NCBI GenBank assembly: GCA_021650915.1
Contig: CP091279.1
Coordinates: forward strand, 1,440,001 to 1,472,000
DNA: 32,000 nucleotides
Source of the DNA: Candidatus Brocadia sp.
GTDB taxonomy: Bacteria; Planctomycetota; Brocadiia; Brocadiales; Brocadiaceae
Direction: 5' to 3'
Notes under the pieces: model-generated
The model's database searches: none
Told to the model about the DNA's origin: nothing
Seen by the model: only the letters and a program-made list of their open reading frames with translations
Program-made: the position numbers and the translations under genes
Shown here: piece by piece, positions 4,812-30,106 of the stretch
Numbering within the stretch: position 1 is the first letter of the stretch
Layout of the letters: every line of letters begins with the position of its first letter

Positions 4812-4946
4812 AATAGCACGGGGACAAATCTCCCTTGCTTCCTTTGGGAGCAAGACATATTTATCCTCTTCTGGGTTATCCCAAATCCACCTGCTCCGCG
4901 GGTGGATTCTTTACTTTATGCGCAAGCCCTATAATCCCGGGAAAAT

Positions 4947-5099: not shown

Positions 5100-5317
5100 G
5101 AAAATCGAAATTCAATTCAAATTTTTTTCACATCTCTATGATGCTACGCTGTCACAGAGATGTTTCCGTCCGTGGTACAACCACGAATGATACGCACCAT
5201 AGTGTCTAATAAAAAAATATTTTGACATTATTGGCAAAAATGTGAATAGGCATACCTCTGTCAGGGTTTTGAACCCTGACAGGGGTGGCTCGCTTTTCCG
5301 ATTCGTTCGGTTTGGGG

Positions 5318-6554: not shown

Positions 6555-6689
6555 CGTAAACCAGCTTAAATAAAATGAAAATTCCTATACAATCCAGTTA
6601 TAAAAACGAAAGGGAGTCAAAGTATATAAAACGGGGACAGGCCAGTCAATTGAAAAGAATAATGCCAAGGAATTTCCGTATACTTTTTT

Positions 6690-7571: not shown

Positions 7572-7763
7572 TATTTCAATGCAGGCATGGGGGAAACGAT
7601 CACGAATTGCCCCAAGGGCAGGCAGGGTGACAATTATATCGCCAATAGCCCCTGGACGTATAATTAAGATGCGTTTTCCTGAGGATTTAGATTTAGCCGA
7701 TGTTTGTAAAATGGGTTAACAGGATGTTAGATTTGATACTTATCAGCGCAGATGAAAAATTTG

Positions 7764-8087
7764 TTACGACGATTCCTCTTTCTTTTTTTTAATCATTTCA
7801 GTCACATTCTCAAAGAATTTGGGATTTCCGTCAGCTGCAGCCCGTTTTTTTGCCTCCGCCTGTATCTTTTTTACATCCAGAATATCGCCCATGCACTCCT
7901 CGGCGGATTTACACCACTCTACGCAGGTTGGAACCTTGTCTTTAAAAATAGTTGTGCCGCACTTATGGCAATCCGTCTTTTCTTCATCACTCCACATCTC
8001 TACCATCACACCACAATTATGGCATTTGCGATCTATCGGTGTAGGGGTCGCATTTCGTATACTACCTGGACATTTTACTTTACTCAT
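7764..8087 (-). CDS. Small Cys-rich (zinc-ribbon-like) protein, function unknown
   Basis: The ATG at 8087 is preceded by AAGGAG. It has CxxC pairs (CHNCG, CHKCG) plus further Cys residues and a Lys-rich tail. Confidence 0.55.
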   Translation of the reverse strand: MSKVKCPGSIRNATPTPIDRKCHNCGVMVEMWSDEEKTDCHKCGTTIFKDKVPTCVEWCKSAEECMGDILDVKKIQAEAKKRAAADGNPKFFENVTEMIKKKKEESS

Positions 8088-8394
8088 AATCTGTAATCTC
8101 CTTAACCTTACCAAAGAGATATTCCATCTTTGTTTTATAAAACGGAATTTTATGCCAAATTGTTTCCTTGGTCAAGCATTTTCTCAAGAAGAGGCCGTGT
8201 CAAAAGTTTTTCATCTTCATAGAAGCAAGGGTTATCACATCATAAACACGGCTACATCGCAACCAAAGCCCTCCCTCATTTGGTAAAGTTTACCCTATCG
8301 CCACGTTTCCATCCGGACATCGTGGAATGGCCGAAACAGGACTGTGATAAGGGCGTGAAAAGGTCACCTTATTTTCTTGCGTTTTTGTTAAATA

Positions 8395-10244: not shown

Positions 10245-10314
10245 TAAATACTTGTTAATAATGTTTGCACAGCGAAAATCACGCTTATTTATCCCAATTC
10301 AAAGACGAGGCCCC

Positions 10315-12259: not shown

Positions 12260-12510
12260 AATCCCATTGCCCGTGAAACGAGATTCATCTTGTCAAGAAC
12301 ATCAACAGGAATTATCATTTTATCCATGCTGGTTTCGTAAACGTAATGCGCGATCAAATACAGTTGGATTAGAGATACGACGGCGGAGTCCTGCCCTCAG
12401 ACCGGTTATCGTCTTGAAGAAATTGGGAAACACCGATTATCCTTCTTTAACTCAAAACCCAAGATAGGGTTTTGAGACGAGAGAATTGCAAGAAAATCGG
12501 TGCCGATTTT

Positions 12511-13906
12511 TCAAGAACTTAACGCCTTCAGCGGACTTTCACTCAACACACTCCATGGTATAGTTATTACACCCTGGACATCCGATTGCTCATACTTACC
12601 TCTTTTTATCTCATTCAACTCATCATAAATCACCCCATACCGGGGATGCCATATCGTGCAAATGTCCATCTCTTGACCACACTGCGGACAGACTAAAGGG
12701 TCTTTCCCGGTGCCCGCCCGATATCTCTCTCGATACCTCTTCTGCGCAATTATACTCCACAGGCTCACAATTTGTGATTTATAGTAGTTCAGCACGGACA
12801 AGCAGAGTTTGTCCATGCCATCTTATTATCAATTTAAAATTCACATTTTATGAGCATCTTGAGTATATCTTCACCGCTCCCTTCAATACCCTTTTAACTT
12901 TTGACAAGACTTCTCGAATAATCTCCTGCACCTGTTCAAACGTCTTTGTCGCTTGCACCCCATAATATCTTATCCTTTTAAACCCTTTCGGAAGTGCATG
13001 CTGGATCATCCTCCCGATAAACGTATACACGTCCACCCGTTCTTCCTCTACCTGCTCCGTCTTATATGATCGGTAATGATATCTTACCGTCTCACCATCA
13101 TATCCATCTATTCTCCTTATCGATATCGGTGGACTCACCACGTATTTCGCCAAATATCTCGCCAAACTCTCATATCGACCAGGCACCTCCCCCTTCTGCA
13201 CATTCGCTACAAACCCTTTCGGATAGCTCCTGTAACAACTATCCACCAACTCCTCTATCTCTTCCGTATCTATCCCCTCCCTCACCATCTCCAGTAAATA
13301 CCACTGCCACTTCTTATGCAACATCGGATACGGTAAATACTCCAAATGCTCCCACCTCCGGCTATTTTTATCCATCCCACCGCTCGTCGCTATAATATGA
13401 AGATGCGGATTATACTGCCCGTTTCTTCCATGGGTCTGTAACACTACTATGTATCTGCCCCTTATCTCCTTCCTGCTGACTCTACTAAAAAATTCATCCA
13501 AACACTTTACCCCTCCCGACATCAGCTTTCCCAATAACTCTTCTGTATGATTGTAAAACGTTTTCCTTAATCTCTCCGGCACCGTCAACACGATATGCCG
13601 ATAGATTATCCCTTCATGCAACATCTTGCTTACCTGACTTACCCACTCATTCACATACACCTTCCCACATCTCAAACACATTGCACTCTTACAACTCATC
13701 GATACCACTCGGTTTCCCTCTCCACAGCAAAAACATAAATACCTTCTATATCCCATCTCTTCCGGATTACCGCACTGCAACATCTTTTTTACTTGTTCAT
13801 CATAGCATTGCTTACTATACCTCGGATACTTCCTCTTAAATCCTTCCCAATGTTCTGAGAATATCTGCTTGAATACATTCCATCCCTTCACTGGTTCTGC
13901 CTTCAT
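12511..13906 (-). pseudogene. IS91-family (Y2 HUH, rolling-circle) transposase, split into 352-aa and 101-aa ORFs in different frames
   Basis: An N-terminal Zn-binding Cys cluster, HGRNGQYNPHLHIIAT (HxH) and YLAKYVVSPPIS / RIRYYG blocks. The C-terminal CPQCGQEM part is in another frame after the stop at 12848. Element ends are not resolved. Confidence 0.75.
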
Positions 13907-14032
13907 AGGTATATCATTATAGACACTGGCATATCATATTACCACCCCGAAACCCGCTTAAATAAAATGAAAATTCCTATACAATCAAAATAGTGCAATA
14001 AAATTGTTTTTTCATAACGAAAAGGAACTCTT

Positions 14033-14146
14033 ATGCTCAAACCGAAATTACTGGATCAGGTGCGTGATGCAATTATGGGTAAAGCACGACGCATGATGAC
14101 CGAAGAGGCGTATGTGTATTGGATTAAGCAGTGTATCCTATTTATG
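14033..14146 (+). pseudogene. intI: Integron-integrase (IntI) N-terminal remnant 1
   Basis: MLKPKLLDQVRDAI..TEEAYVYWIKQCILF matches the typical IntI N-terminus (KLLDQVRxAIRxKHYSxRTExAYVxWIKRFILFH). A local compensated double frameshift replaces RVKHYS. Homology ends at a 12-bp-stem hairpin (14146-14172). Confidence 0.6.
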
Positions 14147-14332: not shown

Positions 14333-14530
14333 TTACCACTTTTTCTTCATGAAGTAGTACACCATGGTAATGCCTGTAGCAGCCATTATCAGCAAGACCA
14401 TTGGATATCCCCAGCGCCACTCAAGCTCAGGCATGTATTTAAAATTCATCCCGTAGATGCCGGCGAGGAATGTAAGCGGCATAAATATGGTAGCAATCAT
14501 GGTAAGCACCTTGGCTGGTTGTAGAGTAAA
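14333..14530 (-). pseudogene. corA: corA (Mg/Co transporter) 3'-terminal fragment
   Basis: The minus-strand translation is ..KVLTMIATIFMPLTFLAGIYGMNFKYMPELEWRWGYPMVLLIMAATGITMVYYFMKKKW*. It has the YGMNF signature and two C-terminal TM helices. No N-terminal part is present. Confidence 0.8.
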
Positions 14531-14589
14531 ACACTGGCGTAGTGGCTCCAGGCTGAGGTTTGTGTTCCCCGTTTCTCTTCGTTTCCTCC

Positions 14590-14833
14590 GAGAGTGTCAC
14601 ACGATCACAACCATACCCTATTTCCAGCATCTTCTCATCAAACCGTACGTGAGGTTTTCTCTCATACGGCTTTCCTGTTCCCTTCTCAGTAAGGCATTAT
14701 CCACCTATCGACCTAGGGCGGCTTTCAGGAGAAGGTATTGTATTCGATAGTCATTGTACAATCCCCATTTCTGATATATTTCCTCCCTATTCCACAGCTT
14801 CCAGCCGAAGCCCTTCCGTTTCCTCCGCTTCAT
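14590..14833 (-). mobile_element. Group II intron 3' fragment (RT/maturase C-terminal tail, domain V, probable domain VI)
   Basis: The minus strand at 14671-14640 reads AGCCGTATGAGAGAAAACCTCACGTACGGTTT, which is the domain V consensus shape (AGC..GTAT..GAAA-type loop..ACGTACGG). Upstream, the ORF tail KRRKRKGFGWKLWNREEIYQKWGLYNDYRIQY* (14833-14705) resembles intron-encoded protein C-termini. The 3' boundary is approximate. Confidence 0.7.
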
Positions 14834-16588: not shown

Positions 16589-16644
16589 ATGATTTAAGGC
16601 CCTGCTTCCCTGCTAGCTTGCTGTACAGGAATTTCAAAGTTGCG

Positions 16645-16700
16645 GTTGTAGAGCGACGAGCCTCGTCGCTCTACATTGAGAAGATCGCCGAAGGCCTAAT
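16645..16700. repeat. 56-bp hairpin repeat (REP-like), copy 1
   Basis: gttgtagagcgacgagcctcgtcgctctacattgagaagatcgccgaaggcctaat has a tagagcgacgag/ctcgtcgctcta stem. A second copy lies at 30021-30076 with a few substitutions. Confidence 0.8.
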
Positions 16701-17089
16701 TTCCCAGGCAGTTCACGTAATATAAGAGCTGGCCGTAATTTCCCTTCTTTTTGATCAGTTTGAGGAAATTTGAAGAGAACAATTTGGCCTTTAGTAATCA
16801 TGAAAAGGTTTCCTTTAAATCATTCATAGAATATGGAGATTTTTCGTCTTCCATTCCTCGCATAGCTGACGAAAGCGAAAGGTCATTCCATTCGATTTTT
16901 TCTTCTTTTTCTGCTCTTGATCATAAATATTCAACAAAATCGAGTGCAATCAAATTCTATCATGTATTCAGGTATATAATCAATATTTTCACCAACATCA
17001 TCAAGTTTATTTTGGCTTTCCAATTCTCTCAATTGTTTAATATTCTTATACGTTTCGTCAATTAAAATATTCCTTTTCTACAGATACTT
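16697..17089. repeat. Degenerate duplicate (X') of 19533-20027
   Basis: Collinear with 19533-20027 apart from a few SNPs and a roughly 104-bp internal deletion (19780-19883 missing). It carries only toxin codons 1-35, a gutted antitoxin and the 3' end of the 240-aa gene. Confidence 0.85.
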
Positions 17090-17094
17090 CAATT

Positions 17095-17175
17095 CTCCGT
17101 TGGAATATCGCAATCCATGAGCCAGGTGCGCCGAAATTTCCCATACCGCCCTTCGATCCGATTCAAATCACTAAT
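17095..17175. repeat. 81-bp direct repeat R, copy 1
   Basis: ctccgttggaatatcgcaatccatgagccaggtgcgccgaaatttcccataccgcccttcgatccgattcaaatcactaat. It has 4 mismatches to 19053-19133. Confidence 0.85.
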
Positions 17176-17327: not shown

Positions 17328-18818
17328 TTGACTGCAAAATATCTATTCGCTGGATACCCCTCCGCCATCGTATATGAGCTTGGGGCTGACACCAAGCCTC
17401 CTTCCAAGCTGAAGGCGGTGAAACAATTACTCTGGGGAGATTATATGCGTGTGGTCCGCAGCTCCGGTGAATATTATCATGTGAAGATACGTGGCGTGGA
17501 AGGCTGGATCAAGGCGAGCGATACGCAACAGGAGCGGCTGCTGGAAATCGTATTTGTAGACATCGGCCAAGGTGACGGCGCACTGGTTATTACGCCCGAC
17601 GATCGCAAGTATATAATCGATGCTGGCGAGGGCGACAACATGTACCGGTTTCTGCGGTGGCGATTTGGAAAATTCCGACAGCCTGTAATTTTTGATGCGG
17701 CGATTATCTCGCATTCTGACTCGGACCATTATGGTGGATTCGAGGAGATATTTAAAGAGCCAAACGTGAAATTTCGCGCCGTGTATCACAATGGACTTAT
17801 GGAACGCACATCGGTAAGAAAAGCAGGAATATTGGGCCAACCAAAGAAATCTGGCGCTCATTCTTATATTACAGACCTCGTGCCAACGCTGGAAGCCTTG
17901 AGAACGTTTCTCTCAAAGCCTTCAGCATGGAAGGATAAGAGATATCCGACTATGCTGAACAAGGCATTGGAGGCTGGCCGGTTTGAAGACTTTAAAATGC
18001 TCAGCGCAGGTGATCGCCATTTCCCAGGTCATGGACCCGGTTCCACGCTTGAGATACAGGTGTTAGGCCCTTATCCGGAGACAGTAAATGACACATTAGC
18101 CCTGCGGTGGCTGGGAGATGTGGGCAAGACAAAGAATGGTCACTCCATTGTGTTTCGCTTCCTTATCGGCGGGGTATCTATCTTTATGGGAGGGGATTTG
18201 AACTTGGAATCCTGTCGTCTGCTGCTTGAGAAACACACGGGGTTATCCCCGCAACCGAAAACTTCCGAGGACGAAGCTGCGCTTGTGGCTGGCGGCCAAC
18301 GCATTTTCGGCTGTGACATCGCAAAAGCGTGCCATCACGGCAGCGCGGATTTATTCATTCCATTCCTGAAGTCTATTCACCCTATTGCCACGGTCGTCTC
18401 CAGCGGGGACGATGAACCGCACGCCCATCCGCGAGCCGATGCTCTTGGGGCTATGGGACGATGCGGTCGTGGAGAGAGACCACTGATTTTCAGTACCGAG
18501 TTATCCCGCTCAGCCAAGGAAAGCATCAAGCACCCCAACGTACTTCGCGAACAACTGGCGGCCTTGTTAAAACGGATTACCGACGCAAAGACTGACAAGC
18601 AAAGGGCGTTAGCCCAAAAAAAATTCGACGAGGCAACAGCAAACCTTGACCGGAGCGTCGCAGTCTTCGGTGCGATTAACCTCCGCACTGATGGCAGGAA
18701 GGTTGTTATGGCATACAAGCTGGAACAATCCACACCTTCTAAAGGTTGGGACATTTACCAGATGGAGCCGATCGGAATCAATGGTCCTCTGGGATATCAG
18801 AGCAAGTATGACAAATGA
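17328..18818 (+). CDS. MBL-fold metallo-hydrolase (ComEC/Rec2-type beta-lactamase-like domain) with N-terminal SH3-like region
   Basis: FVDIGQGDGALVITPDDRKYIIDAGEG ... IISHSDSDHYGG (HxDxDH variant) ... CHHGS ... SSGDDEPHAHP. A TTG start is the only option after the in-frame TGA at 17310. Confidence 0.75.
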   Translation: MTAKYLFAGYPSAIVYELGADTKPPSKLKAVKQLLWGDYMRVVRSSGEYYHVKIRGVEGWIKASDTQQERLLEIVFVDIGQGDGALVITPDDRKYIIDAGEGDNMYRFLRWRFGKFRQPVIFDAAIISHSDSDHYGGFEEIFKEPNVKFRAVYHNGLMERTSVRKAGILGQPKKSGAHSYITDLVPTLEALRTFLSKPSAWKDKRYPTMLNKALEAGRFEDFKMLSAGDRHFPGHGPGSTLEIQVLGPYPETVNDTLALRWLGDVGKTKNGHSIVFRFLIGGVSIFMGGDLNLESCRLLLEKHTGLSPQPKTSEDEAALVAGGQRIFGCDIAKACHHGSADLFIPFLKSIHPIATVVSSGDDEPHAHPRADALGAMGRCGRGERPLIFSTELSRSAKESIKHPNVLREQLAALLKRITDAKTDKQRALAQKKFDEATANLDRSVAVFGAINLRTDGRKVVMAYKLEQSTPSKGWDIYQMEPIGINGPLGYQSKYDK

Positions 18819-19052
18819 CGAAAAGAACCATGCGTTTTGCTGTGTGGAGATAAAAAACCGAAAAGAAAATATTCAATTCTTCGTTCCAGCTGGCGCCATA
18901 TAAGGGTGGATGGAAAGAGATCCCTTTAAATCTTAAATGCCTGTTCAATCCACGTCTTTTTCAGCAACGGTTTTTCCACCCGCGTCAAAATGTCCCTTCG
19001 GAGTCCCAGCCGGATAATCAATCCCCCGGGAGCGCATCTTTTCCAACATATC

Positions 19053-19133
19053 CTCCGTTAGAATAACGCAATCCATGAGCCAGGTGCTCCGAAATTTCCC
19101 ATACCGCCTTTCGATCCGATTCAAATCACTAAT
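19053..19133. repeat. 81-bp direct repeat R, copy 2
   Basis: See 17095-17175. On the minus strand it lies inside a start-less open frame (..ISDLNRIERRYGKFRSTWLMDCVILTEDMLEKMRSRGIDYPAGTPKGHFDAGGKTVAEKDVD*; a TAA lies upstream and there is no start codon before the internal M of LMDC). Confidence 0.85.
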
Positions 19134-19231
19134 GGGTGACCACCTTCTCCTTTACAGAACCTGAGCGGGATAGTAGGTAAGCATCCTGGAGGATTTTTTG
19201 ATGGTGTATCAGAAGCAGCAATTACCATGTG

Positions 19232-19294
19232 TTAGAACCTAATGAATGCCGAACTGCTGCGAAGCAAAAAACTACGTGCTATGATTTGTTATGC
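19232..19294 (-). other. Candidate attC site (attC-E)
   Basis: The minus strand reads GCATAAC-AAATCATAGCACG...CGGCATTCATTAG-GTTCTAA. The toxin stop codon TAA lies inside the R''-like GCATAAC. Arm pairing is only partial and the R' core is non-canonical. Confidence 0.35.
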
Positions 19295-19636
19295 GCTAAG
19301 AATCCATTTGGATAGTTTTTGCCTTATTTTGTGTAGTCTTTCTGTGTTAATCTGTCCCAATGTACCAAGGAGTGCCTTTCCATCAACAACGGCAAGCCTG
19401 CTGCCTCGAATAATGCTTGGCACCTTCAAACCAGATTGAATAAAATCAGAAGCTTCAGGAGCGATAAGTTCGTCTAACTCAGGGATTAGTTGATCAATAT
19501 TAGAAGATATCATACAAATAAGCCAGTCGTTAAATTTTCCAGGCAGTTCACGTAATATAAGAGCTGGCCGTAATTTTCCTTCTTTTTGATCAGTTTGAGG
19601 AAATTTGAAGAGAACAATTTGGCCTTCAGTAATCAT
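19289..19636 (-). CDS. Type II toxin, PemK/MazF family
   Basis: MITEGQIVLFKFPQTDQKEGKLRPALIL..DWLICMISS.. matches the MazF/PemK fold pattern. It overlaps the upstream antitoxin gene by 4 nt. Confidence 0.8.
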   Translation of the reverse strand: MITEGQIVLFKFPQTDQKEGKLRPALILRELPGKFNDWLICMISSNIDQLIPELDELIAPEASDFIQSGLKVPSIIRGSRLAVVDGKALLGTLGQINTERLHKIRQKLSKWILSA

Positions 19637-19845
19637 GAAAAGGTTTCCTTTAAATCATTCATAGAATATGGAGATTTTTCGTCTTCCATTCCTCGCATAG
19701 CTGACGAAAGCGAAAGGGCATTCCATTCGATTTTTTCTTCTTTTTCTGCTCTTGATCGTAAATATTCAACAAAATCGAGAACTTCTCTTTGTTTTAGTTC
19801 GGGCAATGTTTTTACATTTTCAATAATTCTTTCTGTAAGGCTCAT
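19633..19845 (-). CDS. Antitoxin, DUF2281-like
   Basis: MSLTERIIENVKTLPELKQREVLDFVEYL. The ATG at 19845 is preceded by GGAGGA. The longer track ORF start was rejected. Confidence 0.65.
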   Translation of the reverse strand: MSLTERIIENVKTLPELKQREVLDFVEYLRSRAEKEEKIEWNALSLSSAMRGMEDEKSPYSMNDLKETFS

Positions 19846-19901
19846 ATCATATCCTCCACTTACCCATAATAACAACCTCAAGCGCAATCAAATTCTATCA
19901 T

Positions 19902-20429
19902 TTATTCAGGTATATAATCAATATTTTCACCAACATCATCAAGTTTATTTTGGCTTTCCAATTCTCTCAATTGTTTAATATTCTTATACGTTTCGTCAAT
20001 TAAAATATTCCTTTTCTGCAGATACTTGGGCAGAGGAACTTTAATTTCTTCGTTTTCTCTACAAATATCAAGATATCTTTTTATTATTTCTAACTCTCCT
20101 TTCGTTTTTTCTTGATTATTACGATACCATAAATCTTTTACCATTTCTCTGATTTCCTTTAATATTTTACCAATACCTTGAAAACTGAAACCACCAGGAG
20201 ATGATATTCTAATACGATAGACTTGTAGTCTTTCGTGTTCATTTGAGTAAAAGTCTAAATTGTTAAAAATATATTCTATATCAGGAGTTCCTTTATCTAA
20301 AGACAACATTGCTTGATTAGGAAGATTAAACGGAGGAAATGGAGGTAGTGGATAATGTAATTTTGTTTTACGCCACAAACTGAGAGTTTCTTTCCATATT
20401 TTATAGGAATCATACACAATCGGATGATC
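19902..20429 (-). pseudogene. 3' part of a 240-aa gene of unknown function, interrupted by IS copy B
   Basis: The first 24 residues of the track ORF are encoded by the IS left end. The authentic sequence resumes at ..DHPIVYDSYKIWKE.. and joins in frame to 22285-22479 once the IS and one TATATA copy are removed. Confidence 0.8.
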
Positions 20430-20435
20430 TATATA

Positions 20436-22284
20436 GTGTTTGAACGGAAACCCCCCAGAGCCCTGTAAAGTAAGGAGAAGCTGGTGAAAAATGTTCATGA
20501 AAGTCATTGAATTTTTTCGGGTAAAAGGGTAAAATATGGCGAAAATGAAGGGATTCTGGGTATAAAGAGTCCAAATATTCGGTTCATTAACCCACTAGCC
20601 AAAGGACATTCGATAGAAGATGAGAAAGAGATTTGAGCAGCAATTGAAGCTTGGCATCATACCCATTTCAGGGGTAAAACTGCCAATAAAGAGTCGAGAT
20701 GAGCTACCACCGATACTGAGGGCGTTGCAACATATCTATGTTACACCGGAGTTGAACGAGGAGGTATTCCGGATATTAGAGGCGAAGGTAACGAAGGGGA
20801 AGAAAAAGACGGGAAGATATGGGATGGATTTATGGCATATTTTGGTGTTGTCGGTGGTAAGATTAGGGTTAGATGCCGATTATGACAGGTTGGAGGATTT
20901 TGCCAACCATCACAAACTTATCAGGCAGATAATGGGGGTTGAGACGGCATTTGGAGAGGCGAAGGTTTTTTCGATGCAGAGCATCAAGGACAATATAAGA
21001 TTGTTGGATGAGGAGACCCTCAGGCAGATAAATGAAGTGGTGATATCATCGGGGCATCAGTTGGTTAAAAAAAAGGACGAAGGACTGTGTATTAAGGTGG
21101 ATACGTATGTGTTAGAGACGAATGTACACTTTCCGACCGATATGAATTTATTGTGGGATGCGGGACGCAAGAGTCTGGACATGATAGAGGATGCAATAGA
21201 GGAAGGCATCCTGGCGGGGAAAGGATGGCGCAAGAGCAAATATTGGAGGAGAGAGTTAAAAAAGCTGATGAGGATAAGCGCAAAGGCGTCAAGCAGCGGG
21301 GGGAAAAACAAGGAAGAGCATGTGAGGAGTTACTTGGAATTATCGAGGGGTTTGAGTGAAAAGATAGGAGCGAGTCTGTTAGCCATCTACGAAAAGGTGC
21401 TAACGACGAACCAGGTAGACAAGCATGCAGGGAAAATAGGGACACTGGAGTATTTTCACGGGATGTTGAATAAACAGATAGACCTGGTGGAGAGAAGGGT
21501 GATCCGGGATGAGGTAATACCGGCGGCAGAAAAGGTTCATTCGTTGTTTGAGCCGCATACGGAGTGGCTGTACAAAGGCAAGTCAAACAAAAGGGTAGAG
21601 TTGGGACATAATATTCTGGTAGCAAGCGATCAGTGGGGTTTCATCGTGGACCATGTGGTAGGAGAAAAACAGGCGGATGTATCGTTGGTAATTCCATTGG
21701 CAGATAGGTTGTTGAGCCGTTACGGAGAAGGCACAATAAAGAGTATAAGTTTTGATAAAGGTTTTTACAAGAAAGAGAATAAAGAGTTGCTGAGTTTGTA
21801 TATACCAGAGGTAATCCTTCCCAAGAAGGGCAAGAAGAATAAGGCGGAACAGGAAGAGGAATCGGGTAAGACATTTAAGAAGCTAAGGCACAAGCACTCG
21901 GCGGTAGAATCGGATATCAATCGTTTGGAGCATCACGGCTTGGATAGGTGTCCGGACAAAGGGCTGCATGCCTTTAAAAGATATTGTGCAATGGGCGTGT
22001 TAGCTGCGAATTTGCACAAGCTGGGAAACGTGCTGCAGGAGAAGGCACGGAAGCAGTGCGAAAAGTTGCGAAAAGCCGCCTAAGCAAGCAAAAAACACGA
22101 AGAAAAACAGTCTGCCGGGAGGCAGGTACGCCCAGACAAGGCTAAAATAAAGGGGAAAACAAGGGAAATATGTAAAAGAACAGTATTTTTGCCAAAAACC
22201 CTAATCTCAAATCTTAAAATTATCTATTGGTAAATAGAAAATCGACCTCGCACTTTTACAAAAAGTGCGTTTTCGTTCAGACAC
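20436..22284 (+). mobile_element. DDE insertion sequence, copy B (intact)
   Basis: It has the same IRs as copy A and is flanked by the direct repeat TATATA (20430-20435 and 22285-22290). By eye it differs from copy A only at 20453 (C versus T at 8412) and in G-tract length. Confidence 0.9.
20620..22083 (+). CDS. DDE transposase (IS4/IS5-superfamily-like), intact 487 aa
   Basis: An uninterrupted ORF with DDE-type blocks HFPTD, SFDKGF and SAVESDINRLEHHGLDRC. Confidence 0.9.
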   Translation: MRKRFEQQLKLGIIPISGVKLPIKSRDELPPILRALQHIYVTPELNEEVFRILEAKVTKGKKKTGRYGMDLWHILVLSVVRLGLDADYDRLEDFANHHKLIRQIMGVETAFGEAKVFSMQSIKDNIRLLDEETLRQINEVVISSGHQLVKKKDEGLCIKVDTYVLETNVHFPTDMNLLWDAGRKSLDMIEDAIEEGILAGKGWRKSKYWRRELKKLMRISAKASSSGGKNKEEHVRSYLELSRGLSEKIGASLLAIYEKVLTTNQVDKHAGKIGTLEYFHGMLNKQIDLVERRVIRDEVIPAAEKVHSLFEPHTEWLYKGKSNKRVELGHNILVASDQWGFIVDHVVGEKQADVSLVIPLADRLLSRYGEGTIKSISFDKGFYKKENKELLSLYIPEVILPKKGKKNKAEQEEESGKTFKKLRHKHSAVESDINRLEHHGLDRCPDKGLHAFKRYCAMGVLAANLHKLGNVLQEKARKQCEKLRKAA

Positions 22285-22479
22285 TATATATTTTTCATAC
22301 TCATGAAACCAATGATCTAAATTTTCCCAATAGCTAACTTGAGATTTATGGAAAATATTTTTGGTAAGAAATAAATCATATATGTTTCCTATACTGGTGG
22401 ATAACAAAGTAAGATCATTAGTTGTCCATATTCCCCTTGTCCGAAAACCTATAGTTACTGTATTTGATTTTTCATTCAC
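22285..22479 (-). pseudogene. 5' part of the IS-interrupted 240-aa gene
   Basis: A GTG start at 22479 follows GGAGAG. It encodes ..VSYWENLDHWFHEYEKYI and then runs into the IS right end. Confidence 0.75.
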
Positions 22480-22501
22480 TTTTTCTCTCCTATTTTAAAT
22501 C

Positions 22502-22584
22502 ATATAACGTGCAGCTTGAGGGGCGCGTGGAAACAGGCGGCGAAGCCAGTTGTTAGAGCATCCCTCTCGAAACGATTGTTAGGT
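22502..22584 (-). other. attC-like site (attC-A), possibly composite
   Basis: The minus strand reads ACCTAAC-AATCGTTTCG...(inner CTCTAAC-AACTGGCTTCG)...CAAGCTGCAC-GTTATAT. The R''-proximal sequence CCTAACAATCG is shared with attC-C. The next ORF starts 23 nt after the R'. Confidence 0.55.
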
Positions 22585-22691
22585 ACCTGGGGTCAAAATG
22601 GGTGACCCCTGCCCCTAAAGACCAAACTATCGAATCTCTACTCTATGAAATGCCACCGCGAAGCAGTTTCGTTCAACAATGATTACTGCGG

Positions 22692-23012
22692 TCAGGTGGA
22701 GCGATTTGTTAGGCGTGACTGTCTTTGATTTAACCATTTTTTAAATGAAGTTTGACTCTCTCCTGATGGTTTACCCGCTAATAATCCTTTCACGCTTATA
22801 TCTTCGTCAATGTCTTCCCAATGAATACCATGACCTTTACCTATTAGCCTCCAGTTATTTCGCTCTTCTAATGAAGCATGCACCAGGCGTGGAAACCACT
22901 CAAGCGGGACAGATATTGTCCTTCCATCGCTTAGATCGACACTCAAGGTATCATCTGTTACTTTTACATCTGCTGCTTTTGGAATTTCTGTTTCAATTGC
23001 CGAAATATTCAT
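22692..23012 (-). CDS. DUF2442-like protein (putative antitoxin-like partner)
   Basis: VKVTDDTLSVDLSDGRTISVPLEWFPRLVHASLEERNNWRLIGKGHGIHWEDIDEDISV fits the DUF2442 pattern. The start is set at MNISAIE. Confidence 0.7.
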   Translation of the reverse strand: MNISAIETEIPKAADVKVTDDTLSVDLSDGRTISVPLEWFPRLVHASLEERNNWRLIGKGHGIHWEDIDEDISVKGLLAGKPSGESQTSFKKWLNQRQSRLTNRST

Positions 23013-23229
23013 GCCATGCCTCCAACAATTTTGAATGATACTCATTAATAATCCTCCGGATTTTACCTATTTCCGCACGGCTAAATCCCTCACTACTTTG
23101 CAGTCTAACTGGATCAAGCCAGAATTTTGCAATTTTGTCATCGCGCTCAACGTGAACATGCAGCGGTTCATCTCGGTCTCCCGCATAAAAGAAAAAACGG
23201 TATGCTTCAACTCTTAAGACAGTTGGCAT
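22993..23229 (-). CDS. DUF4160-like protein (putative toxin-like partner)
   Basis: YRFFFYAGDRDEPLHVHVERDDKIAKFWLDPV fits the DUF4160 pattern. It overlaps the DUF2442-like gene, a commonly seen pairing. Confidence 0.7.
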   Translation of the reverse strand: MPTVLRVEAYRFFFYAGDRDEPLHVHVERDDKIAKFWLDPVRLQSSEGFSRAEIGKIRRIINEYHSKLLEAWHEYFGN

Positions 23230-23420
23230 TGATATTATATCACCTTTATACGCGCTTCAGCACCGAAGCGGTTGTTACATTACTTTATTAAAAAACGTTT
23301 GTGAAAAGAGGATTAAAGGGTCACCTTGACTTTTCTTTATGGTTTCGTTTCTTTTATCAATATCAAAACTATTTTTACCCTATTTGGAGGGCTTTTTCTT
23401 TAGCCTGGTCTCTCCTTTTT

Positions 23421-23636
23421 CTACTCTACCAAATTTTTCTCAACTTCAAGCGTGTAAGATAGGATTGTTTTTAAATCCATCTTTTTAGAGGCGTGAAGGA
23501 TTTCAATCCCTACAATCTTGTCCTCAGAAGTCGTATCTAAATTAACCCCTTCAGATAGTTCTATAACTCCTTCTGGAATCTCATCACCCAGCTTTAGGTA
23601 CAACGCATCTACTTCATCATCATAATATACTTTCAT
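23421..23636 (-). CDS. DUF2283-like protein
   Basis: MKVYYDDEVDALYLKLGDE...VGIEILHASK fits the DUF2283 pattern. Confidence 0.7.
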   Translation of the reverse strand: MKVYYDDEVDALYLKLGDEIPEGVIELSEGVNLDTTSEDKIVGIEILHASKKMDLKTILSYTLEVEKNLVE

Positions 23637-23859
23637 CTTTTTCTTCCTTTCTTCAAAGGATAGTTTGTTATTACTGTTGTTATATCATCATCAACGGAAA
23701 CAGCAATCTTTAATGGGTATTTAAAACCTTCAACATTTTCTATAATTTTTGATTACCTTGAATCAATTCTTTACCTGCCAGAATCTTTCTAACTGTTTCC
23801 TCTGGAATTTTATATAATTCTCCCCTTCTTTTTGCATGGCGAGAGAACTTTATTTCCAA
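23633..23859 (-). pseudogene. DUF4258-like protein, frameshifted
   Basis: A TTG start is followed by LEIKFSRHAKRRGELYKIPEETVRKILAGKELIQGNQKL*. The remainder, (I)IENVEGFKYPLKIAVSVDDDITTVITNYPLKKGRKR*, is in another frame. Its stop overlaps the DUF2283 ATG (ATGA). The length of 227 nt is not a multiple of 3. Confidence 0.6.
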
Positions 23860-23891
23860 AGCGATTTGTCCTTTTATTCTCTTATCTTAAG

Positions 23892-23949
23892 CAATAACGC
23901 CGCTGTTCAGCGGCGGCGGTACGCCATCCGCTGCAACCGATTGTTAGGC
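23892..23949 (-). other. attC site (attC-C), 58 bp
   Basis: The minus strand reads GCCTAAC-AATCGGTTGCAGCGG-ATGGCGTACCG-CCGCTGAACAGCGGC-GTTATTG. R'' matches RYYYAAC. The arms are imperfectly complementary with unpaired bases. The DJ-1 stop codon TAA lies inside R''. Confidence 0.75.
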
Positions 23950-24633
23950 ACTTCTCTCAAGAGCCTTGAGCAACAATTCAGCGACGGCATCACCCGAAGC
24001 CGGGTTTTGGCCACTAATGAGTCTCCCGTCTTCAACAGCATATGCTGCCCAAGGCTCATCCGCCTTGTGGTAGATGGCTCCGCGATTAACCAACTCGGTC
24101 TCGGTCAAGAAGGGCACATACTTATCAAGCTCGGCTAGTTTCTCCTCTTCGTTTGAGAAGCCTGTGACCTTCTTCCCTTTCACGAGCAGGGTGCCATCGG
24201 ACATCTTTATGTTCAGCAGGCCCGCGGCTCCATGACAAACCGACGACACATAGCCACCGCTTTCATAAATCCTTCGGCTAATGGCCTGGAGTTCCTCGTT
24301 GTCTGGAAAATCCCAAATGACACCATGGCCGCCTGCAAAGTAGATGGCCACATAATCATCTGGCTTGACTTCACTTGGCTTCAACGTGGCGCCAAGCCGA
24401 TTCATAAACTCCTTTGTCTGATACCATGTCCAGTCAGTGTCATCTGCCATAGCAAGGCTATGGGGGTCAATCGGTGTATAGCCGCCTCTGGGACTGACAT
24501 AGTCCACTTGATAGCCAGCCGCTTCGACCTTCTTCACAAAGTGCACAGCCTCTCCTAGTCAGAGACCGGTAGCGCGCTTCAGATTGGGATACTTCTCGAT
24601 GCTGGTCAGAACGACAAGAATCTTCTTTCTCAT
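23944..24633 (-). pseudogene. DJ-1/PfpI-family (class I glutamine amidotransferase-like) protein with premature TGA at codon 25
   Basis: The ATG at 24633 follows GGAGGA. The sequence is MRKKILVVLTSIEKYPNLKRATGL*LGEAVHFVKK..., with TGA at 24561-24559 where a Trp codon (TGG) would fit. Downstream, SSVCHGAAGL contains the nucleophile-elbow Cys. Confidence 0.8.
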
Positions 24634-24669
24634 GAGGAATTCCTCCTATTGCTTTGAATGGGTAGTGGT

Positions 24670-24799
24670 GCCTAACGGTGGGCGTTACCCGCTGGTGGGC
24701 GGGACGAGAGAACGCCTCTTTGCCGGAATCAACTTCAAGCCACACAAACTGCTTGAAAACGCGCAGACTCCCACCAGTCGGGTGCACGCATTGTTAGCC
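24670..24799 (-). other. attC site (attC-D), 130 bp
   Basis: The minus strand reads GGCTAAC-AATGCGTGCACCCGACTGGTGGGAG...CCCACCAGCGGGTAACGCCCACC-GTTAGGC. R' is a perfect GTTRRRY. CTGGTGGG pairs with CCCACCAG. It lies 28 nt after the protease stop and 37 nt before the DJ-1 ATG. Confidence 0.75.
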
Positions 24800-24826
24800 G
24801 CCGTTATTGCGATTCATGCTGCGCAT

Positions 24827-25234
24827 TTATACCCAATGCCAACTTTGTGAATCAAAGCCCAGTTCAACTGCCGCTTGTATGGTCTCTAAGCCGATTATCG
24901 CAGGGCTATTGCCAGAGGGATGAAAGATAATTTTTGTTGTTGGTAAAGGCTTACCTTCAAACTTGAATCCGACGTTAGGATATAAATCCATCGTAGTTGT
25001 CGAACCATCCGCCAACATAACACTTTGCTTAATGCTAGTGGATGGAGATAATTTTATTGCCGTTGCTATTGCCTGAGGAAATTGAGTAAATACTGCCCCG
25101 GTGTCAACTACTGCCCAAATTGTGGTAGCAACAATCCCTGTAGGTCCAATTACTTCTACGGTTGCATAGGCTTGCTTGAATTGCCCTGTCTGACCCACAT
25201 AGTATCTACTGGATGGATAAGTAATCTTTTTCAT
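24827..25234 (-). CDS. Retropepsin-like (clan AA) aspartyl protease, single domain
   Basis: WAVVDTGAVFTQFP (DTG active-site motif) and the C-terminal AIIGLETIQAA block. Confidence 0.7.
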   Translation of the reverse strand: MKKITYPSSRYYVGQTGQFKQAYATVEVIGPTGIVATTIWAVVDTGAVFTQFPQAIATAIKLSPSTSIKQSVMLADGSTTTMDLYPNVGFKFEGKPLPTTKIIFHPSGNSPAIIGLETIQAAVELGFDSQSWHWV

Positions 25235-25443
25235 TCTCGCACCCTCACATCAAATGTCACAAATGCAAATGTAAGCCTTGAAATGTCAAGTCTGCGTTCT
25301 CTAATCGCTGCCATTAAATCGTCAAGTGATCTTCTGGAATCCACAAAACCTTCTGGATTAACTACTATCCATGAATTATTGAATTCACGCAATTCATTCC
25401 AATGAGTAGACAACCAATCCGAACCACTAAATACTTGAGCCAT
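25231..25443 (-). CDS. Small DUF5678-like protein
   Basis: A 70-aa ORF overlapping the protease start (ATGA). The pattern NELREFNNSWIVVNPEGFVDSRRSLDDLMAAIRE resembles DUF5678 proteins that often precede retropepsin-like genes. Assignment is from memory. Confidence 0.45.
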   Translation of the reverse strand: MAQVFSGSDWLSTHWNELREFNNSWIVVNPEGFVDSRRSLDDLMAAIRERRLDISRLTFAFVTFDVRVRE

Positions 25444-25449
25444 AAGTCA

Positions 25450-25917
25450 TCACTCCTTTTTAGATGTATCAGGTGGCTGAATAGTCCAGCCTGGTGGAAG
25501 ATTTTCAGCCGAGTTCACTGGTATAGCGGGTGCTTGCGGCGCTGGCTGATTTGCAATAGGCTGATATTTCAAGGTGATTTTGTTCGAGTGTGTTTCTTTT
25601 GAGGATCCTCCCAATTCTACAGCATAAACTTGAGGTATTTCACTTTTTGATTTCAGATCAGTTTGCGATTCGGCTTCAAAGGCAACCTCTATGGTACACT
25701 CTTGAAACTGCATGGTTTTCTCATGAGTGCTTTTATGGACTTCGGCTATCTGTCTCGATACCTCAATCAAAAGATCTTTTAAGATAGCAACACGTCGTGG
25801 TGCGGGTAACTTCGCACGATTAATTAGATAACCGACATAGTAACCAACTATTCCCGCTATCATAGTGCCAAGAGCAAAAGCACAAGTAAGAAGAGAAATC
25901 AACACTGATGTTTCCAT
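25450..25917 (-). CDS. Membrane-anchored protein with trypco2-like (trypsin co-occurring domain 2) C-terminal region
   Basis: An N-terminal TM helix (VLISLLTCAFALGTMIAGIVGYYVGYL) is followed by MQFQECTIEVAFEAESQ...VYAVELGGSSKETHSNKITLKYQP. This resembles the trypco2 pattern F.V..VELEF.V......G.....THR.KL.L.P. The start is uncertain (25917 or 25923; AGGAGA lies upstream). Confidence 0.45.
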   Translation of the reverse strand: METSVLISLLTCAFALGTMIAGIVGYYVGYLINRAKLPAPRRVAILKDLLIEVSRQIAEVHKSTHEKTMQFQECTIEVAFEAESQTDLKSKSEIPQVYAVELGGSSKETHSNKITLKYQPIANQPAPQAPAIPVNSAENLPPGWTIQPPDTSKKE

Positions 25918-25953
25918 TTCCATTCTCCTAAAATTCAAGATAGTTAACCAGGC

Positions 25954-26029
25954 GGCTAACATGAATTATCCGTACGAACAGCCGCATTGTTTTACGGCTG
26001 TTCGTACATATAATACGTCTACTGTTAAC
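25954..26029 (-). other. attC-like site (attC-F) bordering the intI remnant
   Basis: The minus strand reads AGTTAAC-(16 nt)-GTACGAACAGCCG-TAAAACAATG-CGGCTGTTCGTAC-(11 nt)-GTTAGCC. The stem is a perfect 13 bp, the spacers are partly complementary, and AACAATGCGG is shared with attC-D. Confidence 0.5.
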
Positions 26030-26146
26030 TTATTATACGGCTATTTGGGCATATAATAAGGTGCACGAATATCTTGCCGGGAGTATACCTTACATTACCA
26101 AAATAGTGCAATACCTTTTATTTTTTCAAAGCAAAAATTAACTCTT

Positions 26147-26306
26147 ATACCCAAACCTAAATTATTAGATCAGATGCGTGATGCAATCCGGGTAAAGCAC
26201 TACAGCATGAGAACAGAAGAGGCGTATGTTCATTGGATTAAAGAAACACTCTTACAAAAATCGGTAAAAGCGGCGATCCGTGCCGCAGGGATCAATAAAC
26301 CTGCAA
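26147..26306 (+). pseudogene. intI: Integron-integrase (IntI) remnant 2: start codon lost, internal deletion, 3' truncation
   Basis: (ATA)PKPKLLDQMRDAIRVKHYSMRTEEAYVHWIKE is joined directly to TLLQKSVKAAIRAAGINKPAS, which resembles the IntI region just before the HxLRHSFATHLL box. ATA stands where remnant 1 has ATG. It ends where the convergent ABC gene stops. Confidence 0.65.
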
Positions 26307-26309
26307 GTT

Positions 26310-28319
26310 TTATGACCACTTTGGGTGCTGAGGCGCCTCGTTCAAGTCGATAGCGGGTTCTTGAATTATGGTGTCCCCTGCTTTTTCTATTCCTGCTTCA
26401 GCCTCTTCGAATTTCATCTTTTCCTGGGTATTGAACTGCATCTCGAAGAGTTTTTTGTAAAGCCCTCCATGGGCAAGCAGTTCGTGATGAAGTCCCGTTT
26501 CAACGATCCGCCCCTTCTCCAGCACCATGATCAGATCGGCATGGAGTATGGTTGACAGCCGGTGCGCAATAACGAACGTGGTCCGGTCTTTTATCAGGCG
26601 GTAGATGGCGTTTTGAATAAGTTGCTCGGTCTCCGTATCAACCGATGCTGTGGCCTCGTCCAGGATAAGGATTCTGGGGTTGGCAAGGATGGCACGGGCA
26701 ATGGCGATGCGTTGTTTCTGTCCGCCGGAGAGCTTTACCCCGCGTTCACCAATCAGGGAATCATATTGCTTTGGCAGCTCGCAGATAAAGTCATGCGCAT
26801 TGGCGGCGCGGGCAGCCTCTTCAATTTCGTTGCCCGCCGCATCAGACCGGGCATAGGCGATGTTTGCCTTTATGGTGTCATTAAACAAAAAAGGCTCCTG
26901 GAGCACCATGGCCATTTGCCTGCGCAGGGAGTGGAGTCTGACGTCCTTTATGTTATATCCATCAATGAAAATCCCTCCTTTGGTGGGGTCATAAAATCGG
27001 GGGATGAGTTTTGTCAGGGTGGTCTTGCCACTGCCGCTGGGACCTACAAACGCAATCATCTGGCCCGGACGCGCAGTGAGGTTGATGTCTGACAGGACTT
27101 CGGTGTCCTGATTATAGGCGAAGTGGACGTGCCTGAATTCTACCATACCCCGCACAGGTGGCAAATCAATGGCATAGGGAGCATCTTTTAAATCGCACGG
27201 CGTATCCAGTATCTCAAAGATGCGCTCGGTGGATGCGATGGCGCGCTGCACCTGGTTGTAAAAACGGGTCAGTCCGGTAATCGGACTGTACATCATCTGG
27301 AGATAGGGAAAGAATATGACAAACGTCCCTGCGGAGAGCTGTCCCTGGAGTACTTTATATCCGCCCAGGCAGATGACAACGACCGCGCCCGTTTCGGTTA
27401 TCAGGTCCACGATGGGCCTTAATGCAGAAACAAGTTTTAATATCCGAACGTAGAGGTGGTAGTTATCATAGTTCTTGCTCCGGAATCGTTCCATCTCCTC
27501 GGCTTCTTTTGCAAATCCCGCAATGACCCGTATTCCCGAGATGTTGTCCTGAATGAGGGAGTTGAGTTCGGCCGTTTTGTCCCTGAGGGAGCGAAAGACC
27601 TTTCGGATCCTTTTGCCAAAATTGTAGGTGCAGAGGGAGATGAAGGGACAAACACCCAGGGCAATGCTGGTGAGTTGCCAGTCAAGTTTTAAGCAAAAAT
27701 AGAGTATCCAGCCAAATTTAAACATATCCGTTATGAAACTCATCACCGGTCCCACAATTGCCTGCTCCAGGGAATTCACGTCATTCATGAGACGGCTCAT
27801 GATATCGCCGGTCTTGGTATTTTCAAAATATTGCAAGGGGAATCGCTGGATATGGCCGTAGAGATGATTCCGCATATCGTAAATGAGCCTTTGGCCGAGC
27901 TCTGAAGTAAGGAATCCATGGACCAGCGTAAGTCCGCTGTGAAAGACGTGCATAACGATGAAGCTTACGGCGAGAAAGACGAGGGTAACGATGGTGTCAT
28001 GATACCCTGCAAACCAGTGCTTATGAACATAGTGGGATGCCCGGAGCAGGGGTTTTGCCAGCGGGATGGGATTCTTTGGTACGTGAGGGCTGGTTTTGCC
28101 GGATGCTTTTTCCTCAGATGAAGCGTTGTGCGGTGTTTTGATAAAGGTGTCGGCTATCCTTATTTCATCCACGGCAATGCCCAGTATTTGGGTTGGCAAC
28201 ACAGCAATGTAAGCGCTGACGGCCGAAAGGATGAGGATAATTACCGATTTATGCCAGTACGGCTGCAGATAACCGAGGAGTCTGACATAGGTGTTTCTTA
28301 AAGAAGCGTCATTTTTCAT
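26310..28319 (-). CDS. ABC exporter, fused permease/ATPase (MsbA/ABCB-like)
   Basis: Walker A GPSGSGKTT, signature LSGGQKQRIAIARA, Walker B ILILDEATS and an N-terminal six-TM-type domain. The start is set at MKNDASL (28319). Confidence 0.9.
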   Translation of the reverse strand: MKNDASLRNTYVRLLGYLQPYWHKSVIILILSAVSAYIAVLPTQILGIAVDEIRIADTFIKTPHNASSEEKASGKTSPHVPKNPIPLAKPLLRASHYVHKHWFAGYHDTIVTLVFLAVSFIVMHVFHSGLTLVHGFLTSELGQRLIYDMRNHLYGHIQRFPLQYFENTKTGDIMSRLMNDVNSLEQAIVGPVMSFITDMFKFGWILYFCLKLDWQLTSIALGVCPFISLCTYNFGKRIRKVFRSLRDKTAELNSLIQDNISGIRVIAGFAKEAEEMERFRSKNYDNYHLYVRILKLVSALRPIVDLITETGAVVVICLGGYKVLQGQLSAGTFVIFFPYLQMMYSPITGLTRFYNQVQRAIASTERIFEILDTPCDLKDAPYAIDLPPVRGMVEFRHVHFAYNQDTEVLSDINLTARPGQMIAFVGPSGSGKTTLTKLIPRFYDPTKGGIFIDGYNIKDVRLHSLRRQMAMVLQEPFLFNDTIKANIAYARSDAAGNEIEEAARAANAHDFICELPKQYDSLIGERGVKLSGGQKQRIAIARAILANPRILILDEATASVDTETEQLIQNAIYRLIKDRTTFVIAHRLSTILHADLIMVLEKGRIVETGLHHELLAHGGLYKKLFEMQFNTQEKMKFEEAEAGIEKAGDTIIQEPAIDLNEAPQHPKWS

Positions 28320-28512
28320 GGTACAGCACAACCGCAACCAAGTCCCCACCCCTTACAAATGGCAAACAATCTCCCTGGATACCACTGTGCCAACAGGGAT
28401 TTGTTCGGCAGGTAGCTTAACTGAGTGACATTCGGCTGCATTGCTGAATCAATGAGCCAGGGAGAACATCCTGAAAGGGGAAAGGGCGGGAGATGGTGTA
28501 GTTCACTCCTTT

Positions 28513-29846: not shown

Positions 29847-30020
29847 GGATCTTTCTCCTTATAATATAGTATTACCGTATAAAATCTTTCTTTTTTTATA
29901 AGTTTTCACAACCCCCTCCACCCCCTTTGCTAAGGGGGACTTAATGTATATGTATAGGAATTTCAATCTTTTGAGCCCCCTCTAGAAAGAGAAAACACAC
30001 CCCCGACTACTCTTTTTAGA

Positions 30021-30076
30021 GTTGTAGGGCGACGAGGCTCGTCGCTCTACATTGAAAAGGTCGCCAAAGGCCTAAT
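30021..30076. repeat. 56-bp hairpin repeat (REP-like), copy 2
   Basis: gttgtagggcgacgaggctcgtcgctctacattgaaaaggtcgccaaaggcctaat. It is collinear with 16645-16700. Confidence 0.8.
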
Positions 30077-30106
30077 TAACAGGCAAACACGGAGGCAATG
30101 GTCTGT

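Follow-up and report, generated by a model that had tools for sequence, protein, structure and literature searches.

The window analyzed here (32,000 nt of Candidatus Brocadia sp., contig CP091279.1, positions 1,440,001 to 1,472,000 of the forward strand; coordinates below count from its first letter) very probably holds the wreck of a chromosomal integron, of a type that is still intact in some Candidatus Brocadia genomes. In a working integron, the tyrosine recombinase IntI joins the folded bottom strand of an attC site to the double-stranded attI site at G|TT, and promoterless cassettes are thereby stacked beside attI, the newest first. Read along the minus strand, in order of decreasing coordinates, the window presents an ABC transporter gene, a stub of intI, a 190-nt intergenic stretch and then small cassette open reading frames (ORFs), which are spaced by GC-rich imperfect palindromes. 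A previous reading made from the sequence alone (the sequence-only reading) had proposed a fossilizing chromosomal integron, or a CALIN (attC sites clustered in the absence of an integron integrase; Cury et al, 2016, PMC4889954), in which a destroyed intI points away from the cassettes on the minus strand. This proposal is borne out by attC model matches at the positions it had named, by the alignment of two stubs with IntI and by related loci in other genomes. The sequences and coordinates it gave were also right, except that the AGTTAAC of its site F begins at 26030 and not at 26029. Its count of attC sites was too high: the validated array consists of three attCs and one half-deleted attC, not of five. 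Although the integrase is dead, the window still has its attI region, its crossover point and its cassette boundaries. The locus is a well-documented relic of a kind already known and constitutes neither a new system nor a new mechanism.

Rfam, when applied to the window at its gathering thresholds, reported no attC and only a group II intron domain, which is why a dedicated attC model was built. A genome-wide scan with the N-terminus of IntI provided 80 intI loci from many phyla, mostly with an intact IntI of ∼318 amino acids. Scanning with a relaxed pairing rule was nearly unspecific (2-5 matches per 10 kb throughout), but the strict canonical attC pairing rule matched 1.28 times per 10 kb upstream of intI on the cassette strand, versus 0.06-0.45 times in three control compartments. 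The first covariance model (R1), a spliced “mini-attC,” found site C of the window but could not span long attCs and was therefore replaced by R2, which was built from 50 aligned full-length sites upstream of intI, all of them from non-anammox genomes. On the 80 loci, R2 yielded 138 matches at E ≤ 0.01 (88 of them new), all of which fell into two of the four compartments, namely the opposite strand upstream of intI and the intI strand downstream of it; the other two contained none. The downstream, same-strand layout (“inverted” integron) accounted for 28 of the 138 matches and was found at loci L020, L022, L036, L043, L056, L057, L069, L070, L072, and L083. On two class 1 integron plasmids, every cassette-end attC of the aac(6')-Ib / arr-3 / dfrA27 / aadA16 array was recovered with 24-49 bits (four of four for the class 1 array of plasmid pLK75).

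When the 32 kb of the window were scanned on both strands with R2 and with filters off, three full-length matches resulted, each at exactly the coordinates and on the strand proposed before:

24670-24799, minus strand: attC D, 130 nt; R2 58.1 bits, E = 1.7e-11
23892-23949, minus strand: attC C, 58 nt; R2 42.2 bits, E = 7.6e-8; R1 40.2 bits
22502-22584, minus strand: attC A, 83 nt; R2 30.1 bits, E = 4.5e-5; the weakest valid site

The next-best match in the window scored 10 bits, and none was better than E = 1.7. Thus, the three sites are attCs according to an independently trained model that matches them from end to end. In the R2 alignments, each of them has the canonical R''-L''...L'-R' geometry with two extrahelical bases on the R''-L'' arm. 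The geometry of site C is that of an aadA-type attC, with the L box pairing at eight of eight positions and the extrahelical bases on the R''-L'' arm. Folding of the bottom strands, which the sequence-only reading had suggested as a check, gave a divided answer. For attC D, the minimum-free-energy fold pairs the R and L boxes, whereas the corresponding folds of C and A lie 1.9 and 2.5 kcal/mol, respectively, above the minimum. Since unconstrained folding is ambiguous on its own, it was calibrated on attCs beside intI and not used as a verdict; 40 of the 50 training attCs folded canonically without constraint, and the largest penalty was 4.1 kcal/mol.

The notion that the sites form one attC sequence family did not hold. 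Sites D, C, and A are 37-54% identical to each other, and each of them is closer to attCs in other genomes. In general, attCs vary in length and are conserved in sequence at their ends alone. Over its 130 nt, attC D is 70-74% identical to long attCs of the Chloroflexi integrons L030 and L089 and, judged by sequence, belongs to a long subtype that also occurs there; attC C shares 75% identity with an attC from a different Brocadia. TAACAA, the R''-proximal sequence that had suggested a local family, corresponds to the consensus of attCs in general, and the number of SCNTAACAAW motifs was not significant (3 found vs 1.1 expected). The G+C content of the cassettes ranges between 0.30 and 0.52, compared with ∼0.50 in the flanking housekeeping genes; the small array was put together from a mixed cassette pool. 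The fifth and weakest of the earlier candidates, site E (19232-19294), lost its standing. It folds no better than shuffled sequences (z = +0.4), and R2 produced only a local match to the R box (19248-19294, E = 6), with neither L-box pairing nor a match of the full model. It could still be a decayed attC.

That the integrase is destroyed, and that its N-terminal remnant faces away from the minus-strand array, is evident from the following features:

26147-26309, plus strand: intI pseudogene, codons 1-32 fused to codons 242-265 of the 320-codon Brocadia intI
26310-28349, minus strand: ABC transporter gene, the end of which replaces the 3′ end of intI
13986-14143, plus strand: second intI stub, comprising codons 1-37 and the 48 nt upstream of them
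12307-13978: IS91-family element with 31-nt inverted ends, which cuts the second stub on its attI side; transposase 224 bits (NCBIfam)

Compared by blastn with a Brocadia locus containing an intact intI (L100), positions 25952-26242 of the window correspond to L100 9806-10096 (attI region and nt 1-96 of intI), and positions 26237-26309 to L100 10724-10796 (nt 724-796 of intI). The stub at 26 kb has, thus, lost 209 internal codons (627 bases) and the last 55 codons (the last 167 bases), its start codon has mutated from ATG to ATA, and its 3′ end is the end of the ABC transporter gene. It ends right in front of the HxxRHSFATHLL box and lacks the catalytic tyrosine. Because all catalytic residues are gone, the integrase cannot act; the functional integrase of a complete integron, with catalytic R-H-R-Y and the IntI-specific extra domain, is not encoded here. 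Nevertheless, the identity of the remnant is clear. It aligned to Brocadia IntI (tblastn E = 3e-16), matched Pfam PF13495 with 32.3 bits (cut-off 27; E = 1.4e-7), had integron integrases as its best NCBIfam families (NF011946 and TIGR02249, E = 1e-9 and 1e-8), and matched Vibrio IntI4 (PDB 2A3V) in two pieces, residues 7-34 and 239-266.

The stub at 14 kb, 82% identical at the DNA level to positions 26099-26241 including the 48 nt upstream, also aligned to Brocadia IntI (tblastn E = 3e-11), as the sequence-only reading had expected of both remnants; its PF13495 match (19.4 bits, E = 0.0014) is under the family cut-off. R2 found no attC near it, and tblastn with ten IntI proteins revealed no IntI in the window besides the two stubs. 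The end sequence of the IS91-family element recurs at 6558-6594 of the window and at 10722-10772 of L032 (Ca. Brocadia sapporoensis), there ∼330 nt past the point where intI homology stops, which suggests that this element struck intI repeatedly. A protein search with the 26-kb stub alone retrieved only short proteins, all from anammox metagenomes. The idea that every anammox intI is dead was overturned by a longer query, the partial 225-amino-acid IntI of Brocadia L016, which led to intact 320-amino-acid integron integrases in Brocadia (∼90-93% identical to the query). The possibility that the 59-amino-acid ORF of the stub is a conserved mini-protein was dropped because its pN/pS of 0.26-0.47 did not differ from that of a control frame (0.35).

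Between the stub and the first cassette lies the region in which the sequence-only reading had placed its site F:

25954-26146, minus strand: attI region and intI-cassette intergenic region; conserved in Brocadia loci up to G|TT

In seven Brocadia sequences, conservation breaks off exactly at ...TAATTCAT G|TT, beyond which each locus has different sequence and different cassettes. The comparisons covered four, five, and four loci, the last set comprising two with an intact intI. Conservation that ends at G|TT and is followed by different cassettes is the signature of attI and its crossover. On this comparative ground, the region 25954-26029 is attI and not attC. Its R box, GTTAGCC, occupies 25960-25954, with the crossover between 25960 and 25959; comparison of the loci, thus, locates an attI beside intI with the crossover G|TTRRRY of a complete integron. 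The region also contains a direct repeat (26030-26058 and 25987-26015), a hairpin with a 13-bp stem (25965-26014), and the candidate L box GGATAAT. It is kept irrespective of whether intI is decayed (L016, L015, L032, L095) or intact (L098, L100). The arms of the hairpin read GAACAG / CTGTTC in the window versus TAATAG / CTATTA in L016 and L015, which amounts to two compensatory changes.

The cassettes, the first two of which end in validated attCs, are the following:

24676-25959, minus strand: cassette 1, three tightly packed ORFs; ends in attC D
25450-25917, minus strand: cassette 1 ORF with a weak Trypco2 match (Pfam/NCBIfam)
25231-25443, minus strand: cassette 1 ORF of 70 amino acids (from the ORF list)
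24827-25234, minus strand: cassette 1 ORF, clan AA aspartic protease-like (Pfam/NCBIfam)
23898-24675, minus strand: cassette 2, DJ-1/PfpI gene at 23944-24633 (Pfam PF01965); ends in attC C
23230-23897, minus strand: cassette-like segment, frameshifted DUF4258 gene (∼23680-23858) and DUF2283 gene (23421-23636)
22677-23229, minus strand: cassette, DUF4160 gene (22993-23229) and DUF2442 gene (22692-23045); Pfam E = 5e-17 and 1e-23
19633-19887 and 19289-19636, minus strand: DUF2281 antitoxin-like and MazF/PemK toxin genes (Pfam), in the segment 19232-19887

The cassette rule, stated before for cassettes 1 and 2, was found to be exact for both. TTAGCC (25959-25954) at the start of cassette 1 complements the R'' box of site D, GGCTAAC, and TTAGGC (24675-24670) at the start of cassette 2 complements the R'' box of site C, GCCTAAC, in each case at seven of seven positions. 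The same is true for the first cassettes of two relatives (TTATGT / ACATAAC in L095 and TTGGGC / GCCCAAC in L100, each 7/7). Such a pattern is what excision and insertion at G|TT yield, as the six bases past the crossover complement the R'' box of their own cassette and not that of the neighboring attC; four box variants that all match at 7/7 are hard to obtain by chance. The stop codons of two cassette genes do lie within R'' boxes as claimed, that of the DJ-1 gene (TAA, 23946-23944) within GCCTAAC and that of mazF (TAA, 19291-19289) within GCATAAC.

In the segment 23230-23897, DUF2283 was recognized with E = 1.5e-15 (Pfam PF10049) and DUF4258, after correction of the frame, with E = 0.004. 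R2 found no valid attC in this segment, and a 43-nt hairpin at 23240-23282 (z = -1.7 vs shuffles) may be a collapsed attC. The DUF2281/MazF segment has cassette-like gene content, and an attC is unsupported there. PADLOC found no match to a defense system among the cassette proteins. The toxin-antitoxin-like cassettes (DUF4258/DUF2283, DUF4160/DUF2442, and DUF2281/MazF) may aid the persistence of the array.

Signs of decay are spread over the array: a nonsense codon in the DJ-1 gene, the frameshift in DUF4258, an attC without its 3′ arm, an ISNCY-family insertion, and a scrambled partial duplication. The window matches Ca. B. fulgida. In the DJ-1 gene, an in-frame TGA replaces a tryptophan codon, and the same TGA is present on contig LAQJ01000253 of Ca. 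B. fulgida (GCA_000987375.1), which carries the array of the window with few base differences, as do many assemblies from anammox reactors. The other features concerned are:

22671-22714, minus strand: half-deleted attC, 44 nt following the DUF2442 gene; it retains R'' GCCTAAC and L'' but has lost its 3′ arm, and continues with R' GTTGAAC
22617-22676, minus strand: start of an old shared cassette, 60 nt, TTGAACGAAAC...; directly after the G of GTTGAAC
20430-22293, plus strand: ISNCY-family insertion sequence; transposase at 20620-22083 (NCBIfam NF033593, 444 bits)
16634-17175, minus strand: scrambled partial duplicate of 19050-20027 (repeats D1-D3, 94-98% identical)

R2 did not detect the half-deleted attC, the 5′ half of which corresponds to a complete attC of L100 (2584-2656; ATCTAACAAGTCGCTCCACCTGA...). 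The adjoining segment 22617-22676 is 87-92% identical to L100 3789-3849, L095 103-162, and L015 8992-9052. In all four sequences, it is immediately preceded by the R' box of an attC or of its remnant, which reads GTTGAAC in the window, L100, and L015 and ATTGAAC in L095. By its sequence and position, this segment resembles the beginning of an old cassette inherited from a common ancestor, and the cassettes between it and attI would have been added separately in each lineage. The attI-proximal cassettes would, then, have been gained singly, upstream of the older cassette whose start survives at 22617-22676. The ISNCY-family element, bounded by terminal inverted repeats at 20430-20451 and 22269-22290, splits one cassette ORF into 22294-22479 and 19902-20429; a second, direct copy at 8389-10253 (1865 bp, 99.7% identical) has its transposase broken into two ORFs. 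In the scrambled duplicate, mazF is truncated, the DUF2281 gene is represented in part, and the ORF split by the insertion sequence is represented by its tail.

With its own integrase dead, the array would now be frozen, barring the action of an integrase from another locus. Alternatively, the array might not be a fossil at all but be serviced in trans, with cassettes being inserted at attI or excised by an integrase encoded elsewhere in the genome, in which case the dead local intI would be irrelevant. This is considered somewhat unlikely; the relative L095 speaks for it. L095 has an orthologous ABC transporter neighbor and the identical deletion junction in intI, and its homology to the window (86%) begins at the attI crossover, extends over the stub and the transporter, and then stops. 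Its attI-proximal cassettes are entirely different (a 193-amino-acid ORF with an attC of 49.5 bits, followed by an ORF with a NOV_C domain), and their boundaries obey the cassette rule. The stub is 86.5% identical between L095 and the window, compared with 85.7% for the flanking transporter gene, which makes it look as if the deletion preceded the divergence of the two lineages. The same dead intI combined with different cassettes is a hint that cassettes were turned over, either in trans or through homologous exchange. Moreover, intact 320-amino-acid integrases exist in Brocadia, one genome combines a cassette-free intact intI (L098) with a truncated one (L015), and the window itself contains a second stub. 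In contrast, no intact intI is visible in the 32 kb, and homologous exchange of the variable block between the attI region and 22617-22676 would produce such a pattern with no integrase involved. All samples with the array have it in identical form, and the half attC and the pseudogenes argue against frequent turnover.

Over the stub and attI (window 25957-26309 vs L095 1913-2266), ∼10-17% of the sites differ, compared with 43% of the synonymous sites of the ABC transporter gene. The stub is, thus, more conserved than neutrally expected, for which constraint on a promoter or on attI, gene conversion, or a more recent exchange are possible causes. This difference, together with the hairpin pairing kept via two compensatory changes, is the reason to consider that cassettes were still loaded at, or swapped into, attI after the death of the integrase, and that attI and the 5′ intI stub were retained as a landing pad for a Brocadia integrase acting in trans or as a cassette promoter region; that this is so appears fairly unlikely. 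Another Brocadia, L016, carries a single cassette beside its truncated intI (7705-9779), a two-gene restriction-modification system (N6_N4 methylase and NotI-like endonuclease) that ends in an attC of 52.6 bits.

A further reading takes site F for a genuine but non-canonical attC, in which case the first cassette would be empty or lost and not an insertion at attI. It has the size of an attC, AAC and GTT at its ends, a strong hairpin (z = -5.8 vs shuffles), and extra unpaired bases on the R''-side arm. Neither R1 nor R2 gives it a score, however, and its full hairpin is kept beside every Brocadia intI examined, including the intact ones and one without cassettes. In addition, its R''-like GTTAAC is GTCACC in L016, L015, L032, L098, and L100, and pairing its R boxes by force costs 7.6 kcal/mol. 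It is, therefore, very unlikely that the earlier designation “attC-F” was right, given a region that is conserved beside intact and decayed intI alike. Finally, the view that the palindromes resemble attC by coincidence and are no more than intergenic hairpins of an ordinary kind (terminators or REP-like repeats) is already contradicted and retains next to no probability: the unconstrained folds of C and A are not attC-shaped, site C contains one terminator-like match, and unrelated REP-like repeats are present in the window, but 10 of the 50 training sites beside intI likewise fail to adopt the attC shape, the model scores are 30-58 bits versus 10 bits for the next-best match, control compartments of ∼1 Mb of intI loci gave 0 false matches, D resembles Chloroflexi attCs beside intI over its whole length, the cassette rule is exact, and intI stub and attI adjoin the array.

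Several points weigh against interpreting the locus as the wreck of an integron. Only three attCs pass the covariance model, and past 22502, membership in the array is a matter of cassette-like gene content alone. Site A is weak, with 30 bits and a minimum-free-energy fold that is not attC-like; its 30.1 bits fall within the range of textbook class 1 attCs (24-49 bits). No cassette promoter (Pc) could be demonstrated, as a promoter scan remained at chance level; it contained one sigma-70-like match (26129-26100, minus strand), obtained with a tool whose promoter rules do not cover Planctomycetota. The training sites of R2 were chosen by a hand-made pairing rule, the geometry of which had been checked against aadA1 and against sites C and D of the window. 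R2 is, thus, not fully blind, yet both the test on strand and position and the class 1 control speak for a genuine attC model. Its E-values are rough because the calibration was short.

In the terms of IntegronFinder and of Cury et al (2016), the window is a CALIN with an adjacent intI pseudogene. Three attCs are situated on the minus strand, 720 and 1307 nt apart (at least two on one strand, at most 4 kb apart, being the definition), and the only integrase sequences nearby are two non-functional stubs. Integrons have been reported in Planctomycetes, and 15 of 279 CALINs have a neighboring intI pseudogene (PMC4889954). Like those CALINs, the window has at least two attCs within 4 kb on one strand, no functional intI, cassettes of unknown function, and insertion sequences. 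It differs from them in that its pseudogene lacks the IntI-specific C-terminal region and PF00589, and would for this reason be missed by the pseudogene screen of that study, and in that attI and the crossover can still be identified via relatives. The closest complete integron, Brocadia L100 (ERZ25039527 contig_13486), shares the attI region (85% identical), the crossover, the cassette start, and the attC geometry, and both loci have small toxin-antitoxin cassettes and cassettes of unknown function on the strand opposite intI. L100 encodes an intact IntI of 320 amino acids and has four model-validated attCs, whereas intI of the window is gutted and its array is decaying.

With the sedentary chromosomal superintegron of Vibrio cholerae, the window has in common the chromosomal location, the divergent intI, and the frequency of toxin-antitoxin cassettes and cassettes of unknown function. 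Unlike that superintegron, its array is small, its integrase is dead, and its attCs are 37-54% identical instead of forming one homogeneous repeat family. The attCs of class 1 integrons (aadA, dfrA, arr-3, aac(6')-Ib) have the same geometry, R''-5 nt-L''(bulge)...L'-5 to 7 nt-R', and the same model R2 scores them with 24-49 bits and those of the window with 30-58 bits; in contrast to class 1 integrons, the window lacks resistance genes, a 3′ conserved segment, and a transposon context, and its attI is unrelated. No paper on integrons in anammox bacteria turned up in the literature library searched. The locus shows the stepwise decay of an integron in an uncultured planctomycete of the anammox group, which lies beyond the Proteobacteria that the integron literature usually deals with, and supplies a comparatively defined attI for the Brocadia integron lineage, with direct repeats, hairpin, and crossover point. 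Comparison with relatives in which the dead integrase is the same but the cassettes differ provides a small natural test of the mobility of CALIN cassettes in trans, an open possibility according to Cury et al (2016; PMC4889954).

Further repeats and genes surround these features. A REP-like hairpin repeat of ∼60 nt is present at 16645-16701 and 30021-30077 of the window and at 857-918 of L015, one copy being located where the duplicated mazF fragment is cut. Another repeat, of ∼80 nt, occurs at 29863-29939 of the window, at 10659-10737 of L016 (at the truncation point of intI), and at 10537-10573 of L032 (∼150 nt past intI homology), and may be a small mobile element. A near-perfect palindrome of 155 bp (4946-5100) passes the attC pairing rule on both strands and has no attC model match. 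Inside the cassette-like zone, on the opposite strand, a gene at 17328-18818 encodes an MBL-fold protein of 496 amino acids, which weakly resembles ComEC and MBL components of anti-phage systems (LmuA, Avs1a), with scores far under the family cut-offs. The stretch 14333-14674 contains two leftovers, situated between queC and the second intI stub: domain V/VI of a group II intron (Rfam RF00029, 43.7 bits) and, directly downstream of it, a C-terminal CorA fragment with the GMN motif.

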